Shown here one piece after another: positions 17,054-62,676 of a DNA stretch of 64,000 nt (its first letter is position 1; each line of letters opens with the position of its first letter). The notes under the pieces were generated by a model. That model was not told where the DNA came from. It did no database searches and was given only the letters and a program-made list of their open reading frames with translations. A program made the translations under genes and the position numbers. Location of the stretch: the NCBI GenBank assembly GCA_035500505.1, contig DATJXE010000004.1:50230-114229 (forward strand). The letters are read 5' to 3'. This stretch comes from Minisyncoccota bacterium (GTDB taxonomy: Bacteria > Patescibacteriota > Minisyncoccia > Phycocordibacterales > UBA2100).

Positions 17054-17662
17054 ATGCTGCATACCCTCCTGCCGCATCTCGGACTCGTGCATCTCGTGCG
17101 TGCCGTCGGCTATCCCGGTCTCTTCGCGGCTGTCTTTCTTGAATCCGGCGTATTCTTCGGATTTTTCCTGCCTGGCTCTTCGATGCTTTTCACCGCCGGG
17201 CTTCTTGCGACGACCGGCCTTTTCAATCCCTGGGTCTTGATGGGGCTCATGGCGCTCGCCGCCATCCTCGGCGACAACGCCGGTTATTGGTTCGGCTCGT
17301 ACATGGGCGTTTCGCTTTTCTTTTGGAGCGACTCGCGCTTTTTCCGCCACGACTATCTCGAACGCGCGAAAGAGTTCTACGAAAAACACGGCATCCTCTC
17401 TATCGTGCTCGCGCGCTTCATTCCCATCGTGCGGACATTCGCGCCGATATTCGCCGGCGTCGTGAAGGTGCGTTACTCGCTTTTCCTCATGTACAACGTG
17501 CTCGGCGGCATCCTCTGGGCCTCCGGCGTCACGTTCCTCGGCTACTTCCTCGGGCGAAAAGTGCCGTTCATCGCAAGCTACATAACGCCCATCGTCATTT
17601 TGATAATCATTGCGAGCCTCGTCCCACTTTTGTGGGAAACGCGCAAGTCGCGTGATCGTTAG
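17054..17662 (+). CDS. DedA/SNARE-associated family membrane protein
   Basis: 202 aa. The DedA signature GYPGLFAAVFLESGVFFGFFLPGSS and multiple TM helices are present. Confidence 0.8.
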   Translation: MLHTLLPHLGLVHLVRAVGYPGLFAAVFLESGVFFGFFLPGSSMLFTAGLLATTGLFNPWVLMGLMALAAILGDNAGYWFGSYMGVSLFFWSDSRFFRHDYLERAKEFYEKHGILSIVLARFIPIVRTFAPIFAGVVKVRYSLFLMYNVLGGILWASGVTFLGYFLGRKVPFIASYITPIVILIIIASLVPLLWETRKSRDR

Positions 17663-17668
17663 CGACAC

Positions 17669-17778
17669 GTCCCCCCGCAGGCCACACGTTTGCCGTGTTC
17701 TCGGAGCGCTTGGCGCGAGAGGCAGGGAATTTTCAGCAGAAAATTACCCGACGGCAAACGTGTGGCCTGCGGGGGGAC
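17669..17778 (+). repeat. conserved ~110-nt long-hairpin element, copy 1 (28-bp perfect outer stem, conserved 70-nt core with two internal hairpins)
   Basis: GTCCCCCCGCAGGCCACACGTTTGCCGT pairs perfectly with ACGGCAAACGTGTGGCCTGCGGGGGGAC. The core CTCGGAGCGCTTGGCGCGAGAGGCAGGGAATTTTCAGCAGAAAATTACCCG lies between them. The 45-nt stretch CGAGAGGCAGGG...ACGGCAAA is identical to copy 2 at 34166-34279. The element fills the DedA/ROK convergent gap. Confidence 0.7.
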
Positions 17779-17786
17779 CTACCCAG

Positions 17787-18560
17787 TTAGTGCAACTGTT
17801 TCAGGCGGGTCATTCCGCCCCAAAGCCCGCCGAAATCGCCGAGCTGCGAGTGGACTATCTCGGGAACGTTGGGGAATTTTTTCATCACCTCAGCGACGTG
17901 CGCACGCACGCGGTCTACGGAGATGCCTATCTCGTTGAACATCGAGCCGCCAAGCACCACGCGCTCCGGCGACCAATGCAGGATGGAGTTGTGCACGCCG
18001 AAAGCGACCGTGCGCGACAGCTCTTCCCAAACTGCATGGTCTTTGCCCAGGTCCTTTGGCGATTCCACTTTGAAGCGCTCCGAAATCGCTTTGCCAGAAA
18101 CCATCTGCTCAAACGTTGTGGGGGTCTCGCCTATCGAAAGGTATTGGCCGCCGATCTCGAACCCTTGTTTGGAAATATCAATTTTCCCATCAACGATGCG
18201 GGCGCCGTTCACACCGGTCGAGACCGTGACGTACATGCAGATGCGCACGCCCTTCCCTGCGCCGTTGGTCGCTTCGCCCAAACCTACGAGCGCCGTGTCA
18301 TTCTCGATATGCAAAGGTGCATTTATACGCGCCTGCAGGTCCTTTTCGAAAGACGGGCGGGACTTCCAAATGGGTTTCCCGACGATGACGCCGTCTATCC
18401 TTCCTCCGTTCGATATACCTTTTACGGTATTGGCAAGATGTTCTATCAAGTCCTTGAGATCAGGTGGTGTGTGCGTGATGAGCGGTTCGTCAAAACGTTC
18501 CAGGTCATCGGTCTTCGCGATGCGCATCTTCGTTTCGCCTACGTCTACCGTGATGTACAT
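17787..18560 (-). CDS. ROK-family sugar kinase (glucokinase-like)
   Basis: 257 aa. The ROK glycine-rich N-terminus (ITVDVGETKMRIA) and the ENDTALVGLGE motif (like ENDANAAALGE) are present. Confidence 0.7.
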   Translation of the reverse strand: MYITVDVGETKMRIAKTDDLERFDEPLITHTPPDLKDLIEHLANTVKGISNGGRIDGVIVGKPIWKSRPSFEKDLQARINAPLHIENDTALVGLGEATNGAGKGVRICMYVTVSTGVNGARIVDGKIDISKQGFEIGGQYLSIGETPTTFEQMVSGKAISERFKVESPKDLGKDHAVWEELSRTVAFGVHNSILHWSPERVVLGGSMFNEIGISVDRVRAHVAEVMKKFPNVPEIVHSQLGDFGGLWGGMTRLKQLH

Positions 18561-31643: not shown

Positions 31644-34163
31644 ATGCCGATTTTTTTAGACACATCGAAACGGCGCAAGCTGTTCATCCGCGTCTTCGCC
31701 GTCACGTTCGCGTCCATCACTTTCTTGGGTCTTGTGTTCCTCGCAGTCAGCGTCTTTTTCGAAAGCCCGCAGCGCCCCGCGCTCACCTACGCCGAAGCCG
31801 CGGATTCGTATCACTACTACTACAGCTCCGCCAACGATCACAAGATCGCGATCACTTTCAACGACGGCCCGCAGCCGGGTATTTCGCAATCCCTGATGGC
31901 GACGCTTGAGAAAGACAACGCGCCGGCGACCTTCTTCTATATCGGCGAGAATGTTTTCATGCACCCCAACATCGTCCACGAGGCGGCGACGGAAGGATTC
32001 ACTATCGGCAATCAGTCCTTCACCGGCTCCGACAACGTCGAGTCTTCGGCCACACGGCTCTCGCTCGAACTGCACGCGACCGAATTCCTGATATCGCGCA
32101 TCACCGGCGCGTCGTCGTTCTTTTATCGGCCGCCATACCTCCTTGGCGTGGGCACCGACCCGACCATGAATCCCTACCTTCCGCCCTCACAGGACATTTT
32201 GTGGGCCATGGAGAACGGTTACAACCCCGTCGGCGCCGACATCGACCCCAACGATTGGAAGGCCGACACAAAAGAGGACGTTGAGTCGGGCGTCATCGCC
32301 GCACTCAAGAGTTCCCCCAACGGGCACATCCTGCTTCTGCACGAGCGGCCCCAGACCGCGGAAGCGATGGATGCGATAGTCCAGACCATCCGTAAGAGCG
32401 GCTACACCATCGTGCCGCTTTCCGAACTTCTCACGCCGCCCGCGCAGCTCGCGCTCACACAACCGCTCCAGCAGGGCGATACCGACGCGACGACCGAGGG
32501 CCAGGTGTCGCAATTGCAGTGGTTCCTCTACAAAGACGGCGACCTCGACCCGTACCTCATCACCGGCACGTTCGGCTCCCTCACTCGCACGGCGCTCATA
32601 CGCTTCCAATTGAAGAGCAACATCCTCAACGGCGGTTCCGCATCGGCTGGCGCAGGCATCGCCGACGCCGCGACGCGAAAAGCCATCGAGAGCCGCTCGG
32701 TCGCCGTCTTGCAGCACAACGCGCTCTTCAATGCGCCCGTTCTTCATCCCTTCGCGTTCACGTGGATAGGACAACTCTTCGCCTTCGCCTACATCAACCT
32801 CTTCCCCGCCCTGCACGACGGCCTCTCTGCCATCATGTGGCTCGCCCTCTTCATCGTGCTCATACGCTGCGCCGCCCTCTTGGGACTTCTCGCGTGGGCG
32901 AAACGACAGGAGCGGCTGGCCAAGATCGGCGACCCGGAAGACATGGGAGAAGGGATCTCGGTGCTCATTCCCGCGTACAACGAAGAAGAGAACATCCGCG
33001 CGACGATAGAAAGCGTGTTGCACTCCAACTACCAGCCCAAAGAGGTCATCGTCATCGACGACGGCTCGACCGACGGGACCGGCGGCGTCGTGCGCGAAGC
33101 CATGGCGGCGCATCCGGACGAACCCATCAGGCTTCTGCAAGTCGAGAACGGCGGAAAAGCGAGCGCGCTCAACCACGGACTCGAAGCGGCGCAGTTCAAC
33201 ATCTGCGCGGTGCTCGATGCCGACGCGGTCATCGAGGAAGGGACCCTTTCGTATTTCGCGCGACACTTCAAGGACGCCGAGGTGGGCGCTGTCGCGGGCA
33301 AGGTGTGTACGACCGCGAGCGCGCGCGTCCTCGACATGTTGCAGACGCTCGAATATGCGATAGGCCAGAACATCAACAAGCGCGCGCTTTCGACCATTGG
33401 CGCGATAGGCGTCGTGCCGGGACCTTCCGGCGCGTGGAACAAGCGATTCGTGCTCGAAGCCGGCGGTTTCAGCACCGACACCCTGGTCGAGGACCAGGAC
33501 ATGACGCTCACGCTCCTACGCGCCGGCAGGAAGGTCGTCTACGAAGAGAAAGCCGTCGCCTACACGGAAACGCCGCACACCGTGAAGAACTTTCTCAAAC
33601 AGCGATTCCGCTGGGTCTACGGCACGCTGCAATGCTTCTGGAAACACAAGCGCGTCGTCATCGAGCACCCGCTTTCGAGCATGAGCCTCATCGTGCTGCC
33701 CAACATCATCGTGTTCAACACCCTGCTGCCGCTCACCTATCCTTTCTCCGATCTTTCGCTCGTCATCGGCCTCCTCGTGAGCGACTGGCACGGTCTCGTC
33801 CTGCCGTTCCTGCTCTTCACCGCGTTCGACGTTTCGTACGCGGCGGTCGGGGTTTGGCGCGAGAAAGACCGCGTGCGGATGCTCGCCTATGTCCCCTTGC
33901 AGCGTTTCGTGTACCGCCAGCTGCTCTATTACACGGTCATGCGGGGCCTCATCCGCGCGCTCGAAGGCACGGGCTCGGGCTGGAACAAGTTCTCGAAGAT
34001 CGGCGAGACGCAGCGTTTCTACTTCTCCGCCCTCGGCGAGAGCCCCGAGCCCGTGTTGGATTTTCTCCCGTCATTTTCGCCCCTCCCGGACTTGTCGACG
34101 TCGTCGTCTCCGAGCACGTCGGGGATGCTCTCGCTTTCGGAAAGCAGCGACTTACAAACGTAG
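31644..34163 (+). CDS. fusion protein: CE4 (NodB-like) deacetylase, peptidoglycan-binding domain, processive family-2 glycosyltransferase (NodC/PgaC-like)
   Basis: An N-terminal TM helix is followed by ITFNDGP (NodB motif) and a PG_binding_1-like segment (LQWFLYKDGDLDPYLITGTFGSLTRTAL). The GT2 domain has LIPAYNEE, DDGSTDGT, DAD and the QRFRW processive-synthase motif. Multiple C-terminal TM helices follow. Confidence 0.75.
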   Translation: MPIFLDTSKRRKLFIRVFAVTFASITFLGLVFLAVSVFFESPQRPALTYAEAADSYHYYYSSANDHKIAITFNDGPQPGISQSLMATLEKDNAPATFFYIGENVFMHPNIVHEAATEGFTIGNQSFTGSDNVESSATRLSLELHATEFLISRITGASSFFYRPPYLLGVGTDPTMNPYLPPSQDILWAMENGYNPVGADIDPNDWKADTKEDVESGVIAALKSSPNGHILLLHERPQTAEAMDAIVQTIRKSGYTIVPLSELLTPPAQLALTQPLQQGDTDATTEGQVSQLQWFLYKDGDLDPYLITGTFGSLTRTALIRFQLKSNILNGGSASAGAGIADAATRKAIESRSVAVLQHNALFNAPVLHPFAFTWIGQLFAFAYINLFPALHDGLSAIMWLALFIVLIRCAALLGLLAWAKRQERLAKIGDPEDMGEGISVLIPAYNEEENIRATIESVLHSNYQPKEVIVIDDGSTDGTGGVVREAMAAHPDEPIRLLQVENGGKASALNHGLEAAQFNICAVLDADAVIEEGTLSYFARHFKDAEVGAVAGKVCTTASARVLDMLQTLEYAIGQNINKRALSTIGAIGVVPGPSGAWNKRFVLEAGGFSTDTLVEDQDMTLTLLRAGRKVVYEEKAVAYTETPHTVKNFLKQRFRWVYGTLQCFWKHKRVVIEHPLSSMSLIVLPNIIVFNTLLPLTYPFSDLSLVIGLLVSDWHGLVLPFLLFTAFDVSYAAVGVWREKDRVRMLAYVPLQRFVYRQLLYYTVMRGLIRALEGTGSGWNKFSKIGETQRFYFSALGESPEPVLDFLPSFSPLPDLSTSSSPSTSGMLSLSESSDLQT

Positions 34164-34165
34164 CG

Positions 34166-34279
34166 GAAGTCCCCGGGACGGCATGGTTTTGCCGTGTCTC
34201 GGAGTGCGTCGGCACGAGAGGCAGGGAATTTTCAGCAGAAAATTACCCGACGGCAAAACCATGCCGCCCCGGGGACTTC
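34166..34279 (+). repeat. conserved ~110-nt long-hairpin element, copy 2
   Basis: GAAGTCCCCGGGACGGCATGGTTTTGCCGT pairs with ACGGCAAAACCATGCCGCCCCGGGGACTTC (one A/C mismatch). The core is identical to copy 1 from CGAGAGGCAGGG through ACGGCAAA. It fills the gap between the GT2 gene stop and the 3D-domain gene stop. Confidence 0.7.
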
Positions 34280-34299: not shown

Positions 34300-35064
34300 C
34301 TAATGCGTGGGCGTATTGCCGTACTGCGCAGTGCAGCTTGTGCCGTTGAAGAGCGAGCCGGGAACGACCGCGTAGGTCGGACTCGGGTTCTCGATGATGG
34401 TGTAGTTGCCGGTTATGGTGTCCTCGCATGCGAGCACCCCTTTGCCGGAATAGTCGCCCGCGTACATGTCCACCCAGACCTGCACGCCCTTCGGCGTTTG
34501 GTGGCATTCGGCGCAGGTGTCGGCCACGATGAAGTAGCGCCGCACGTTGGGGATGTAGAACTTCGTCCCGGCTGGAATGTCCGGCTTTTCGCCGACGTAG
34601 CCGACGGCGAGCGTGATGGGAGCCTGGTAGGTGCCGGTGCCGCCGGCGCTTCCTTCGATGCCGCTGATGTAAGTGATGATACTTCCCGCAGGATCGTTAT
34701 CGCCCGCAGCGTAGGAGGTCGTGTATGCGGTGAGATAAATTTCGCCCGAAGACGTTGCGGGCGGCGTGCTCGTTGGCGACGTGCTCGGCGGAGGATTTTG
34801 CGGAGGCGGCGGAGGCGGGGGCGTCGGTTTCGTTGTGGTCGCCGTAGACGTGGAGGTCGTCGAACCCGACGTGCCGCCCGACGAATGCTTGGGAGGCTGC
34901 TTCGTATTATTGGAAGTATTCGAACCGGAATGCTGGCTCGAGATGATAACACTCGGCGTCTGTTGTACCGGAGTCGGTGAAGGCTGGGACCAGCCGAAGT
35001 GTCCGCCAAAGAAGAGCGCGCCGACAGAGAGCACTGCGGCCGCCATGAACGACAAGAAATGCAT
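34300..35064 (-). CDS. secreted 3D-domain (MltA/YabE-like) cell-wall protein with Pro/Thr-rich linker
   Basis: A signal/TM segment is followed by a PT-rich linker (TKPTPPPPPPPQNPPPSTSPTSTPP). The C-terminus has GTKFYIPNVRRYFIVADTCAECHQ...VQVWVDMYAGD, which resembles a 3D domain. An alternative start lies at 35130. Confidence 0.5.
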   Translation of the reverse strand: MHFLSFMAAAVLSVGALFFGGHFGWSQPSPTPVQQTPSVIISSQHSGSNTSNNTKQPPKHSSGGTSGSTTSTSTATTTKPTPPPPPPPQNPPPSTSPTSTPPATSSGEIYLTAYTTSYAAGDNDPAGSIITYISGIEGSAGGTGTYQAPITLAVGYVGEKPDIPAGTKFYIPNVRRYFIVADTCAECHQTPKGVQVWVDMYAGDYSGKGVLACEDTITGNYTIIENPSPTYAVVPGSLFNGTSCTAQYGNTPTH

Positions 35065-36490: not shown

Positions 36491-36525
36491 CACAAAACAC
36501 CCCGCCTACGCGGGGTGTTTTGCCA
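36491..36525. terminator. bidirectional intrinsic terminator between convergent genes
   Basis: AAAACACCCCGC-CTAC-GCGGGGTGTTTTG is a GC-rich 9-bp stem with A-run/T-run flanks. It sits between the 36490 and 36537 gene ends. Confidence 0.55.
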
Positions 36526-40087: not shown

Positions 40088-40116
40088 CCTGCGTCAAGGC
40101 GACGCCTTGACGCAGG
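40088..40116. repeat. REP-like palindrome upstream of the RAYT gene
   Basis: CCTGCGTCAAGGCG-A-CGCCTTGACGCAGG is a perfect 14-nt inverted repeat. Confidence 0.6.
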
Positions 40117-40151
40117 GGGCTTCCAAAAAAGCCTTCGTATAAAATCAATCC

Positions 40152-40823
40152 ATGAATCGGGGTCACTTTGCCGTCGGCGAGTGGTATCACTGCTATTCGC
40201 GCGGGATCGAAAAAAGGAAAACATTCGTAAGCAAACGGGACTACGAACGGTTTATCCAACTATTGTATCTTTGTAACTCCCCTCGACCGATCCATCGAAG
40301 TAACTTGAGAAATCCGTCCTTGGGTGAAGTCTTGAATATTCCACGGCAAGAAACTCTGGTGTCTTTGGGTGCATTTTGCCTAATGCCCAATCACTTTCAT
40401 TTGTTAGTCAAAGAAAAACGGGAACAGGGAATCTCGCGTTTCATGCAAAAACTTGGAACGGCGTACACAATGTACTTTAATATCAAAGAAACGAGGGTCG
40501 GCGGACTTTTCACCAAACCGTTCCGTTCGCGCCTCGTGGGCGACGATAGATATTTTCAGTACGCACTACAATATATCCACTGCAATCCGGCCGAATTGTA
40601 CGAAGCCGGTTGGAAAGAGGGCGTTGTCAAAAATATGAAGGAGTTGGAACAACTGTTGGTGGAATACCCCTACGGGAGTTTCGGCGTTTACCAAAGTGCG
40701 AATCATCGTTTGCGCCCGCTCCTTGCGGACGAGGTTTTCGAGATCCAATCTCAAGCAACTCCTGCTCGAATGTTGAGAGAGGCCCGACTCTATTATGCAG
40801 AACGCGTCAAGGCGTCGCCTTGA
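40152..40823 (+). CDS. REP-associated tyrosine transposase (RAYT; IS200/IS605 TnpA-like HuH enzyme)
   Basis: 223 aa. N-terminus MNRGHFAVGEWYHCYSRG, the HuH motif PNHFHLL and a catalytic Tyr region (RYFQYALQYIHCNP). Domain order and length are as in RAYT/COG1943. Confidence 0.8.
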   Translation: MNRGHFAVGEWYHCYSRGIEKRKTFVSKRDYERFIQLLYLCNSPRPIHRSNLRNPSLGEVLNIPRQETLVSLGAFCLMPNHFHLLVKEKREQGISRFMQKLGTAYTMYFNIKETRVGGLFTKPFRSRLVGDDRYFQYALQYIHCNPAELYEAGWKEGVVKNMKELEQLLVEYPYGSFGVYQSANHRLRPLLADEVFEIQSQATPARMLREARLYYAERVKASP

Positions 40824-40828
40824 CGCGT
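40802..40828. repeat. REP-like palindrome overlapping the RAYT 3' end
   Basis: ACGCGTCAAGGCG-T-CGCCTTGACGCGT has the same GCGTCAAGGCG core as the upstream REP. It encodes the RAYT C-terminus ..RVKASP*. Confidence 0.6.
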
Positions 40829-50057: not shown

Positions 50058-50131
50058 TGCCCAGGGCCAGACTCGCACTGGCGACCCTTCGCTCTTCAGG
50101 CGAATGCTCTAACTAACTGAGCTACCTGGGC
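50058..50131 (-). tRNA. tRNA-Phe (anticodon GAA)
   Basis: Cloverleaf GCCCAGG/CCTGGGC acceptor, D-arm GCTC..GAGC and anticodon loop CUGAAGA. The T-loop TGCGAGT is unusual. CCA is not encoded. Confidence 0.8.
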
Positions 50132-50783: not shown

Positions 50784-50855
50784 GCCCTCGTAGCTCAATG
50801 GATAGAGCAATCCCGTCCTAAGGGAGAGATGTGGGTTCGATTCCTGCCGAGGGCA
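50784..50855 (+). tRNA. tRNA-Arg (anticodon CCU)
   Basis: Acceptor GCCCTCG/CGAGGGC, canonical T-loop GGTTCGATTCC and anticodon loop GUCCUAA with G32 and an A27-G43 mismatch. Confidence 0.75.
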
Positions 50856-53203: not shown

Positions 53204-53274
53204 TGCGGGTACGGGGAATCGAACCCCGATCTAATGCTTGGGAAGCATTCGTTCTGCCACTAAACTATACCCGC
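53204..53274 (-). tRNA. tRNA-Gly (anticodon CCC)
   Basis: Acceptor GCGGGTA/TACCCGC, anticodon loop UUCCCAA and T-loop GGTTCGATTCC. Confidence 0.8.
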
Positions 53275-57959: not shown

Positions 57960-57980
57960 GGTGAGCCGAGTATACAGCAA

Positions 57981-58004
57981 AATGGCCCCGAGGGGCCATT
58001 TTGC
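57981..58004. terminator. perfect GC hairpin with A/T flanks 22 nt upstream of murJ start
   Basis: AAAATGGCCCC-GA-GGGGCCATTTT, followed on the minus strand by TATACT and the murJ ATG. Confidence 0.4.
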
Positions 58005-58077: not shown

Positions 58078-58424
58078 CATTTCGCTGCGTCGATAAGCCG
58101 GATTCTGTCGAGGGCAGCCATGTATCTGGGATGGTCGTTGCCGACCACCTCAAGCGACACTTTCGTGAGGCCCAATTGGTTCCCCACGAACACGGCCTTG
58201 CACGCGGGTAGGATTTTTGCCGTTGCACCTCCGAGTTACCTTCGGAGCTGTTCTGCGCAAGGTTGAACCTTGCTCAGAACCCCTTACCTCTCGGCTCGGG
58301 CGTCTCTGTTCGCATCCCTATCCTCGCGGACGGCGGGCGTTACCCGCTACCTTCTTAACATCTCGCGATGTGCGTGTCCGGACTTTCCTCCGCGTTTGAC
58401 GCGGCGACTGCCTGGCGCAGACAG
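58078..58424 (-). ncRNA. rnpB: RNase P RNA, bacterial type A
   Basis: Minus strand carries CAGGCAGUCGCCGC (P2/P3), the universally conserved GGAGGAAAGUCCGGAC (P4/CR-I), GGUAACGCC, GCGAACAGAGAC, AGGUAAGGGGU and 3' ACAGAAUCCGGCUUAUCGACGCAG (P4'/P1). Ends are approximate (+/-5 nt). Confidence 0.8.
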
Positions 58425-59598: not shown

Positions 59599-60285
59599 AT
59601 GAATATGCGCGTACTCATCGTCGAAGATGAAAAGAGAATAGCGGACTTTCTCAAAGAATCGCTTGAGGCGGAATATTTCGCCGTGGACGTCGTCGATGAC
59701 GGCGACAAGGGTGCCTATTATGCGCAAATAAACGACTACGATCTCATCATCCTCGACATCATGTTGCCCAAGAAGGACGGATTTGAGGTCCTGCACGAAC
59801 TGCGGAGCGTCGGCATCACGATCCCCATCCTGGTACTCTCGGTCAAGAGCGAAACGGTCAAGAAAGTCGACTTCCTCAACGCGGGGGCCGATGATTACCT
59901 CACCAAGCCGTTCGTGTTGAGCGAACTCCTTGCTCGCATCCGAGCGCTTTTGCGGCGGCCGCAAAAGACCGAGGCTGAAGTATTCGCAGTGGGCGACCTA
60001 ACGCTGAACGTAAAGGCCGGAAAGGTCACGCGCGGCAAAAGGGATATATATCTTACGCGAAAAGAATTCATGCTTCTGCGCTACCTCATGCAGAATGAAG
60101 GCTCCATCATCTCGCGCGGCATGATACTCGAACACGTCTGGGACATGAGTGCCGACATCTTTTCAAACACGATAGAATCGCACATCTTGAGCCTCCGGAA
60201 GAAGCTCGGCGATACCGGCAAAACCCGCCTCATCCAGACTGTTCCTGGGCGAGGCTACAAGATAGAGGCCCCGCTTACTTCTTAG
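59599..60285 (+). CDS. OmpR-family response regulator (REC + winged-helix)
   Basis: Receiver domain with D9/D10, the phospho-acceptor D53 (LIILDIMLP) and K103. The C-terminal trans_reg_C domain is present. No histidine kinase gene is adjacent. Confidence 0.85.
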   Translation: MNMRVLIVEDEKRIADFLKESLEAEYFAVDVVDDGDKGAYYAQINDYDLIILDIMLPKKDGFEVLHELRSVGITIPILVLSVKSETVKKVDFLNAGADDYLTKPFVLSELLARIRALLRRPQKTEAEVFAVGDLTLNVKAGKVTRGKRDIYLTRKEFMLLRYLMQNEGSIISRGMILEHVWDMSADIFSNTIESHILSLRKKLGDTGKTRLIQTVPGRGYKIEAPLTS

Positions 60286-62593: not shown

Positions 62594-62676
62594 GCGTCGG
62601 TGGCGGAGTGGTCAAACGCACTTGGCTGTAAACCAAGCGCCTTCGGGCTACGCAGGTTCGAATCCTGCCCGGCGCA
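62594..62676 (+). tRNA. tRNA-Tyr (anticodon GUA), type II with long variable arm
   Basis: Acceptor GCGTCGG/CCGGCGC (one G-U), 3-bp D-stem, anticodon loop CUGUAAA, 14-nt variable arm and T-loop TTCGAAT. Discriminator A. Confidence 0.8.

Follow-up and report, generated by a model that had tools for sequence, protein, structure and literature searches.

Between the convergent genes for a DedA/VTT protein and a ROK kinase, a 64,000-nt stretch of the genome of a Minisyncoccota bacterium (GenBank assembly GCA_035500505.1, contig DATJXE010000004.1, positions 50,230 to 114,229; here, the window) carries a structured noncoding element. We propose that this element, which we call copy 1, is one insertion of a small (~110- to 125-nt), noncoding, non-autonomous mobile repeat family dispersed in the genomes of Patescibacteria (the candidate phyla radiation, CPR), and we put the probability of this reading at about 0.6. 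A first-pass annotation of the same DNA had implied a private, locus-specific functional RNA. What we find instead is a repeat family that is dispersed and bears the typical marks of mobile DNA: there are multiple copies per genome, both orientations are used, orthologous sites are empty, and target-site duplications occur. The conserved fold recurs across the range of the family independently of orientation and context, and target duplications accompany a subset of the copies, copy 1 included. The element thus appears to be, or to have been until recently, mobile and non-autonomous.

Copy 1 as an insertion

The two arms of copy 1 (17669-17696 and 17751-17778) constitute a 28-nt inverted repeat that is 100% complementary around a 54-nt core, as first described, and dinucleotide-preserving shuffles of the window produced 0 comparable matches. 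Folded as RNA, the 110 nt reach -82.8 kcal/mol on the + strand and -81.2 kcal/mol on the - strand (z ~ -12), a stability attained by 0 of 200 shuffles. The minimum-energy fold is a three-way junction in which a long closing stem, P1, holds two hairpins, P2 and P3, and the inner ends of the element read TTTTGCCG...CGGCAAAA. The three-way junction of the first-pass annotation is upheld both by this fold and by covariation across ~60 copies. Its first hairpin is also present, in a register shifted by one: covariation supports UCUC/GAGG and GCGC/GCGC, separated by the 3x2 internal loop GGA/GA, in place of CUCG/CGAG and CGC/GCG. The claim that the element lacks coding potential is borne out insofar as copy 1 has no ATG on either strand.

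The last position of the DedA/VTT gene is 17662, and the ROK stop codon occupies 17787-17789 on the - strand. Copy 1 does lie between the two stops, as had been noted, with spacers of 6 and 8 nt, and the inserted unit is larger than the hairpin (Table 1). In the nearest relative (locus L064), the same GPI-ROK/DedA-SHMT synteny is found with overlapping stop codons (CTAA), no intergenic DNA, and no element. The DedA and ROK proteins of this relative and of the window both align up to their stops, and a single CTTAG stands where the two stop codons of the relative overlap. Deleting 17663-17790 from the window recreates this overlapping-stop arrangement. The best reading of copy 1 is thus a 123-nt insertion that duplicated 5 bp of its target, since GTTAG is found on both sides and the deletion restores the overlapping stops of the relative. 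Such a unit would have entered the DNA where the stop codons of the convergent DedA and ROK genes overlapped, and by duplicating GTTAG it would have left each gene its stop.

Other sites show similar signs of mobility. The site orthologous to that of a second copy in the window (copy 2, described below) is empty in two related loci (L067 and L069), and a covariance-model search found 0 copies in 66.8 kb of five related loci; the contig of L064 carries a copy elsewhere (L044). In two loci, L036 and L046, the surrounding kilobases are unrelated and only a 122-nt block is shared, at 94% identity; a separate 9-bp direct repeat encloses the block in each locus, with 9 of 9 positions matching in L046 and 8 of 9 in L036. 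This 122-nt unit matches the 123-nt unit of copy 1 in size. In a set of 46 copies, the sequences abutting the two ends form direct repeats more often than expected: 5 copies have one of at least 6 nt versus 1.0 expected, and 3 have one of at least 7 nt versus 0.4, counts reached by at most 2 of 300 shuffles.

Extent of the family

The AT-rich core hairpin of copy 1 is found again at 34224-34248, within a second full copy. Copy 2 shares a 43-nt run with copy 1 (34215-34257, identical), while its outer arms are unrelated to those of copy 1 yet complementary to each other. Its neighbors are again convergent, namely an 877-amino-acid (aa) GT2/deacetylase gene (stop at 34163) and a 287-aa gene (stop at 34300). 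A covariance-model search run without filters found only these two copies in the window.

When each prokaryotic species was represented by one genome, a scan with the P3 pattern yielded 23 loci, nearly all in metagenome-assembled genomes (MAGs) labeled Paceibacteria/Paceibacterota or Saccharibacteria, with GC contents of 34 to 57%. The same scan of metagenomes added 40 further loci. A covariance model trained on 22 copies and run on the fetched DNA recognized 62 distinct copies, including copies with variant P3 hairpins. Local density reaches 4 copies per 8 kb (L017 and L041); in AT-rich Paceibacteria, one or two copies, often inverted relative to their neighbor, occupy nearly every intergenic gap of an 8-kb stretch. 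The P3 pattern had 0 matches in IMG/VR, and no match to the element was found in INPHARED or PLSDB. The literature that we searched contains no description of such an element, nor of MITE-like or structured repeats, in CPR bacteria, and the motif strings led to unrelated papers only. We thus found no description of the family in Rfam 15 or in the searched literature.

Copies are not tied to particular genes or to one direction of transcription. Among copies in co-directional gaps, 17 are antisense and 10 are sense; 9 further copies lie in convergent gaps and 6 in divergent gaps. They hug stop rather than start codons, with a median distance of ~20 nt to the nearest stop. The genes beside them are unrelated (DedA, ROK, GT2/deacetylase, pilC-type, SET-domain, GatB, GTPase, FtsW/MurG, and GH18), and one copy is located between the co-directional ftsW and murG. 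A gene-specific cis-regulatory RNA, such as a riboswitch or leader, was rejected on these grounds: both orientations occur, mostly at gene 3' ends, and the neighbors are unrelated.

Several variants were seen along the way. In AT-rich Paceibacteria, two subfamilies with different P3 hairpins adjoin in inverted orientation, 40 to 120 nt apart, and nearly fill the gene gap (L017 3530-3810 and L041 6455-6720; also L001, L002, L003, L006, L019, L029, L040, L053, and L058). The outermost stems of these pairs are bordered by A-tracts and T-tracts and resemble bidirectional terminators. In Saccharibacteria-type loci, the P2-P3 module is single-copy and follows a same-strand tRNA gene at a distance of ~240 nt (L012 7440-7760, - strand; L004 6493-6861). 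At L012, ~131 nt that hold the module lie between two copies of a 17-nt direct repeat, GAATCTCTCATCCTCCG, the second of which doubles as the 3' arm of the closing stem; the repeat may represent a target duplication or a switch between alternative pairings. In L004, an extra hairpin makes the junction four-way, and a variant copy at L049 (9020-9125) likewise forms a four-way junction through an extra GC-rich hairpin (GCCCGCCCG...CGGGCGGG) between P1 and P2. An Omnitrophota MAG contains the exact P3 hairpin with an AAAA loop twice (L009 3327-3466 and L023 2540-2680), embedded in a different repeat (CCCCGAGGGAGTCAGGG...CGGTATATAGCGACCCGGGGGA) and accompanied by no recognizable P2 or P1.

Conserved structure and covariation

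The three-way junction is supported by covariation across ~60 copies. In an alignment fitted to the covariance model, which favors structure, 93.1% of cells hold standard pairs, both-sided changes occur in 28 of 30 pairs, and the covariation score is 0.496, versus 0.04 to 0.09 (maximum, 0.093) with slid partners. The observed pairing and covariation values were reached by 0 of 500 shuffles. Two results are independent of the model: single-sequence folding of every copy yields the same helices, and RNAalifold recovers P2b and P3 from a plain MAFFT alignment.

The consensus P1 measures 26 ± 4 bp in the GC-rich type, to which both window copies belong. It is laid out as an inner T-tract with a GC clamp, a copy-specific middle, and often a C-rich tip, the last being loose and present in about half of the copies. 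P2 begins with a P2a helix of 2 to 4 bp, one pair of which is mostly U·G, followed by a 3x2 internal loop (G-S-A/G-A), a 4-bp P2b helix in which all 4 pairs covary, and a G-W-C-G loop; the junction after P2 ends in A. P3 comprises 10 bp that are always A/T-rich, with an AGCA loop and a bulged A, and a lone G forms the last junction. In P2, the G, A, G, and A of the internal loop are near-invariant, as are the loop and bulged A of P3; in total, ~15 unpaired core positions are near-invariant. P3-variant copies, e.g., GCAAAAUUUC/GAAAUUU-A-UGC, retain the helix, with 8 of its 10 pairs covarying. Pairing between the P2 and P3 loops was rejected, as inspection of the alignment revealed no covariation between the loop variants.

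The first-pass annotation had counted against its own reading the case that copies elsewhere are ordinary REP or MITE sequences without structural covariation. Only half of this case applies, since the copies are MITE-like but strongly covarying.

Constant cores and copy-specific arms

In the GC-rich type, similarity between copies stops at the T-tract/A-tract of the inner P1, so that 62 to 80 nt are shared. Six pairs of copies have cores that are at least 97% identical, and in two of them, each from a single metagenome, the cores are 100% identical over 72 to 76 nt. In five of the six pairs, the outer arms of the two copies are at random-level identity (0.25 to 0.42), with each copy's own arms pairing perfectly. 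The near-identical cores agree even at sites that vary freely across the family, and purifying selection alone is therefore insufficient to account for them; they reflect recent common ancestry or homogenization by gene conversion. In AT-rich genomes, whole 115- to 125-nt units are conserved between copies and between genomes, arms included.

The pairing within the stems is close to exact. Internal positions of P1 comprise 668 Watson-Crick, 11 G·U, 5 A·C, and 30 other mismatched pairs, i.e., P1 is 93 to 94% Watson-Crick with no wobble preference, and P3 has 0 G·U among 434 A-U cells. Such pairing seems less typical of an RNA helix than of a palindrome maintained at the DNA level, either because one arm is copied from the other or because a perfect duplex is selected for. 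Assigning a strand from G·U versus A·C was abandoned, as the counts (11 versus 5) are too few to decide.

Derivation of the arms from the target or its flanks was rejected on two counts: L036 and L046 have the same arms at unrelated loci, and the reconstruction of copy 1 leaves no space for a preexisting arm. We also rejected insertion of a small unit into an existing terminator hairpin, as the empty orthologous sites are overlapping stops without a palindrome and the arms have no distal A/T tracts. The near-invariant core may be the part that is recognized, in a folded single-stranded state of DNA or RNA, by machinery acting in trans. Such machinery would copy the element or homogenize its cores, and the arms would need only to pair with each other.

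Comparison with known elements

Rfam 15, which covers known ribozymes, riboswitches, SRP RNA, 6S RNA, and tmRNA, gave no match to the element at the gathering score, whether the window or 8 further loci were scanned, and none at an E value of ≤10 when the element itself was the query. This agrees with the earlier statement that it does not resemble tRNA, 6S RNA, SRP RNA, tmRNA, or familiar riboswitch classes. The only Rfam matches in the window are a class A RNase P RNA (58079-58423, - strand, 122.8 bits) and four tRNA genes.

Among described elements, the closest in kind is bcr1, from the Bacillus cereus group, and SPRITE offers a further comparison. bcr1 is ~155 bp long, has 5-bp direct repeats and a patchy distribution, is transcribed, and forms a long stem with two independent stem-loops that are upheld by compensatory changes (PMC3184786). 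The CPR element is likewise a short noncoding interspersed repeat whose genomic distribution is not conserved between related genomes; copy 1 has 5-bp direct repeats, and no transposase is assigned to either element. It also has, in kind, the long stem and two stem-loops kept by compensatory changes, a likeness of description and not of sequence homology. The two differ in that bcr1 is confined to one species group at ~155 bp while the CPR element spans CPR classes at 34 to 57% GC, and in that bcr1 copies share their whole sequence while the outer arms of the CPR element are copy-specific around a constant core. Transcription has been shown for bcr1, whereas the CPR element is known here from DNA sequence.

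SPRITE and repetitive extragenic palindrome (REP) sequences are small palindromic repeats enriched near gene 3' ends and between convergent genes, with proposed effects on termination and mRNA stability (PMC3184786). The CPR element resembles them as a small palindromic repeat in such locations. SPRITE has a terminator-like motif, in contrast to the window copies, which have a three-way junction and no U-tract. REPs are 20- to 40-nt simple hairpins tied to RAYT, and the CPR element is unrelated to the REPs beside the resident RAYT. A REP of this RAYT was thus rejected, as in the first-pass annotation: the RAYT is flanked by unrelated palindromes of the form GCGTCAAGGCG[A/T]CGCCTTGACGC.

The Correia/nemis elements of Neisseria are miniature inverted-repeat transposable elements (MITEs) of <200 bp that are noncoding and intergenic, form a long stem-loop, and have target-site duplications (PMC3184786). 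Like MITEs, the CPR element is short and noncoding, has several dispersed copies per genome, and shows presence/absence at orthologous sites. In MITEs, the terminal inverted repeats are conserved and the interior is free, whereas in the CPR element it is the interior whose sequence and structure are conserved, the stem being mostly free. Unlike for MITEs, no parent insertion sequence (IS) with matching ends is known.

In shape, the element also recalls the parvoviral inverted terminal repeat (ITR), typified by adeno-associated virus (AAV). These ITRs are the T- or Y-shaped ends of linear single-stranded DNA genomes and are handled by the Rep HUH nuclease. Both are ~120 nt long and have a long palindromic stem capped by two small hairpins, and copying of one arm from the other would explain the near-perfect Watson-Crick arms. 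Unlike the AAV ITR, the CPR copies are interspersed in chromosomes with target duplications, and no Rep gene was seen.

Two further candidates were set aside. Tandem interspersed guide RNA (TIGR) arrays adjoin a Tas gene and are built of 36-nt tandem units that contain alternating repeats, 9-nt spacers, and box C/D motifs (PMC12045711). The copies described here occur singly and dispersed, measure ~120 nt, and are built differently. Integron attC sites have R''/R' core sites (RYYYAAC/GTTRRRY) and a variable center and stand in cassette arrays next to intI; the element has ends GTCCCC/GGGGAC and a conserved center, and its copies lie among housekeeping genes.

The CPR element thus works like bcr1- and SPRITE-type repeats but stands outside their families, as hosts, size, and sequence differ. 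We class it among structured non-autonomous interspersed repeats with one odd property, namely a constant core with copy-specific perfect arms.

A further palindrome in the window (59945-59969; CTTTTGCGGC-G-GCCGCAAAAG) has the T-tract/GC-clamp polarity of the inner P1 and no core. It is probably coincidental, since it lies inside the coding region of a response regulator (59599-60285).

Table 1. Coordinates of the element and of other features in the window
Feature	Positions	Strand	Remarks
Left direct repeat, copy 1	17658-17662	+	GTTAG; contains DedA stop TAG (17660-17662); same 5-mer at 17786-17790
Inserted unit, copy 1 (best reading)	17663-17785	+	123 nt; hairpin plus 6 nt left and 7 nt right
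P1 5' arm, copy 1	17669-17696	+	28 nt; C-rich tip GTCCCC, copy-specific middle, conserved T-tract and GC clamp TTTGCCGT
Junction GU, P2, junction CA	17697-17724	+
P2, copy 1			P2a UCUC/GAGG, internal loop GGA/GA, P2b GCGC/GCGC, loop UUG
P3, copy 1	17725-17749	+	GGGAAUUUUC, loop AGCA, GAAAAUU, bulged A, CCC
Junction G and P1 3' arm, copy 1	17750-17778	+	G near-invariant; arm 17751-17778
Right direct repeat, copy 1	17786-17790	+	GTTAG; contains ROK stop (TTA, 17787-17789, read on - strand)
Copy 2	34166-34279	+	30-bp P1 with one A·C mismatch
Bidirectional intrinsic terminator	36494-36521		AAAACACCCCGC-CTAC-GCGGGGTGTTTT; A-tract, GC stem, T-tract; in convergent gene gap
Bidirectional intrinsic terminator	57978-58003		GCAAAATGGCCCC-GA-GGGGCCATTTTGC; A-tract, GC stem, T-tract
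RAYT-type Y1 transposase gene	40152-40820		Pfam Y1_Tnp, E = 3.4e-8
REP-like palindromes	40089-40120, 40802-40828		GCGTCAAGGCG[A/T]CGCCTTGACGC; both sides of RAYT; only two copies in window
Four tRNA genes	50058-50131, 50784-50855, 53204-53274, 62594-62676		Rfam

Weighing the mobile-repeat reading against its alternatives

Several observations weigh against a mobile repeat. The flanking direct repeats are 5 to 11 nt long, and most copies, copy 2 among them, do not have them. Protein identity to even the nearest relatives is just ~60 to 65%, and at this distance the empty sites might in principle reflect loss of the element in place of its gain. A partner enzyme was found neither beside the dense clusters nor beside the Saccharibacteria-type variant, and no transposase was identified; an autonomous parent element or an IS with matching ends was not found either. 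The terminal inverted repeats differ in sequence between copies, the opposite of classical MITEs. Because five of the six near-identical-core pairs have unrelated outer arms, and these pairs show no recognizable target duplication, simple copy-and-paste of the whole unit is insufficient, and gene conversion of cores or re-making of arms must be added to it. Finally, ~15 invariant unpaired positions across CPR classes are more than a selfish repeat obviously needs.

In an unlikely but substantive alternative, the element is a structured RNA selected by the host. Its P2-P3 module would bind a protein or a ligand or cleave itself, acting in cis at mRNA 3' ends or as a multiplied small RNA, and mobility would be incidental. 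Such a role is consistent with the strong covariation in all four helices, with the mostly U·G pair of P2a, and with the near-invariant positions, ~15 in number, in loops, bulge, and junctions. The module is kept in genomes of 34 to 57% GC across Paceibacteria- and Saccharibacteria-labeled MAGs, cores remain identical while arms diverge, and other architectures exist, namely the four-way junctions of L004 and L049 and the single copy after a tRNA gene in L012. However, the copies have no preferred orientation relative to transcription, and inverted neighbors occur within one operon gap; they have no promoter-like site and no related adjoining genes, and the element is absent from both sites in related genomes. 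The near absence of G·U pairs (0 among 434 A-U cells in P3; 11 versus 668 Watson-Crick pairs in P1) is also unusual for a selected RNA helix.

The relation of core to arms invites a second, quite doubtful proposal. The 54-nt core would be a new functional nucleic acid module, catalytic or recruiting a dedicated protein, that generates or regenerates the arms; alternatively, it would be a scaffold that presents unique duplexes. We consider such a core because identical cores are joined to unrelated arms, P1 is near-perfectly Watson-Crick, total length is roughly constant, and ~15 unpaired positions are invariant. With arms made anew, each copy would gain a fresh, perfectly complementary stem of ~20 bp while its core stayed unchanged, e.g., by hairpin-primed copying or by capping of a DNA end. 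If true, this would be a new propagation mechanism for a bacterial repeat.

It seems improbable that the element forms a hairpin or cruciform at the DNA level on which a hairpin-binding HUH enzyme acts, whether the resident RAYT acting as it does on REP/REPIN sequences or a system using a T-shaped origin like the parvoviral ITR, with complementarity kept by copying one arm from the other. A Y1 HUH transposase is indeed encoded in the window, both strands fold equally well, and P1 shows no wobble preference at 93 to 94% Watson-Crick pairs. However, this RAYT is bordered by its own, unrelated REP palindromes, and HUH/Y1 transposition makes no target duplication, yet duplications of 9 bp and 5 bp are present. 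By inspection, GTAG/CGTC tags occur at the stem feet no more often than chance predicts, with TAG stop codons as a confounder, and no Rep-like gene was seen beside any copy.

Still harder to sustain is the notion that the element is merely an unusual factor-independent bidirectional terminator or 3'-end stabilizer with no further role. The median distance of ~20 nt from the nearest stop codon, the frequent location in convergent gaps, the extreme stability of the hairpin on both strands, and the A-tracts and T-tracts that border copies in AT-rich genomes like those of bidirectional terminators all point in this direction. However, the window copies have no U-tract: we found no T-tract on either side of copy 1 or, on either strand, after copy 1 or copy 2, and a canonical intrinsic terminator was thus rejected, as had been concluded for copy 1 from the start. 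The organism uses ordinary terminators, as evidenced by the two canonical A-tract/GC-stem/T-tract examples in the window (Table 1), and consensus terminator-like sites are not enriched around copies. A conserved asymmetric core with covarying hairpins is not needed for termination, the copy between ftsW and murG separates co-directional genes, and the relatives manage with overlapping stop codons and no hairpin.

We regard as highly improbable that the arms are programmable guide- or spacer-like sequences on a constant scaffold, processed from the perfect duplex against foreign or host nucleic acids, for although identical cores carry unrelated, perfectly complementary ~20-bp arms at roughly constant total length and two of six arm queries have exact viral-contig matches (IMG/VR; a copy 2 arm over 19 nt and an L032 arm over 20 nt, both ending at query length), those matches lie inside GC-rich coding sequence with ~1 expected by chance in total, the other four queries have none, the window contains no further match to the arms, no effector gene was seen in association, the arms in AT-rich genomes are conserved from copy to copy, and L036 and L046 show that arms can be inherited. 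The viral sites (L065 2761-2779, L066 9301-9319, and L071 11101-11120) are in GC-rich phage coding sequences from the sample series 33000368xx; in number the matches are about as expected by chance, but both come from this same series.

Implications

CPR bacteria have tiny, streamlined genomes, and almost nothing is known of their noncoding DNA. Given a mobile repeat placed as copy 1 is, read-through transcripts of both the DedA and ROK genes would end in a 3' hairpin of about -82 kcal/mol. By analogy with REP, SPRITE, and Correia elements, such a hairpin would block 3' exonucleases and hinder convergent read-through (PMC3184786). A repeat that fills most intergenic gaps in some Paceibacteria bears on how transcripts end between tightly packed or convergent genes, as well as on how mobile DNA persists in reduced genomes. 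It also poses a risk for annotation, as the element is mistakable for a novel noncoding RNA gene. A three-way junction conserved in sequence across classes, with a constant core and copy-specific perfect arms, is unlike the behavior of a classical MITE, and this pattern of core and arms offers a concrete handle for finding a new hairpin-recognizing enzyme or RNA function.

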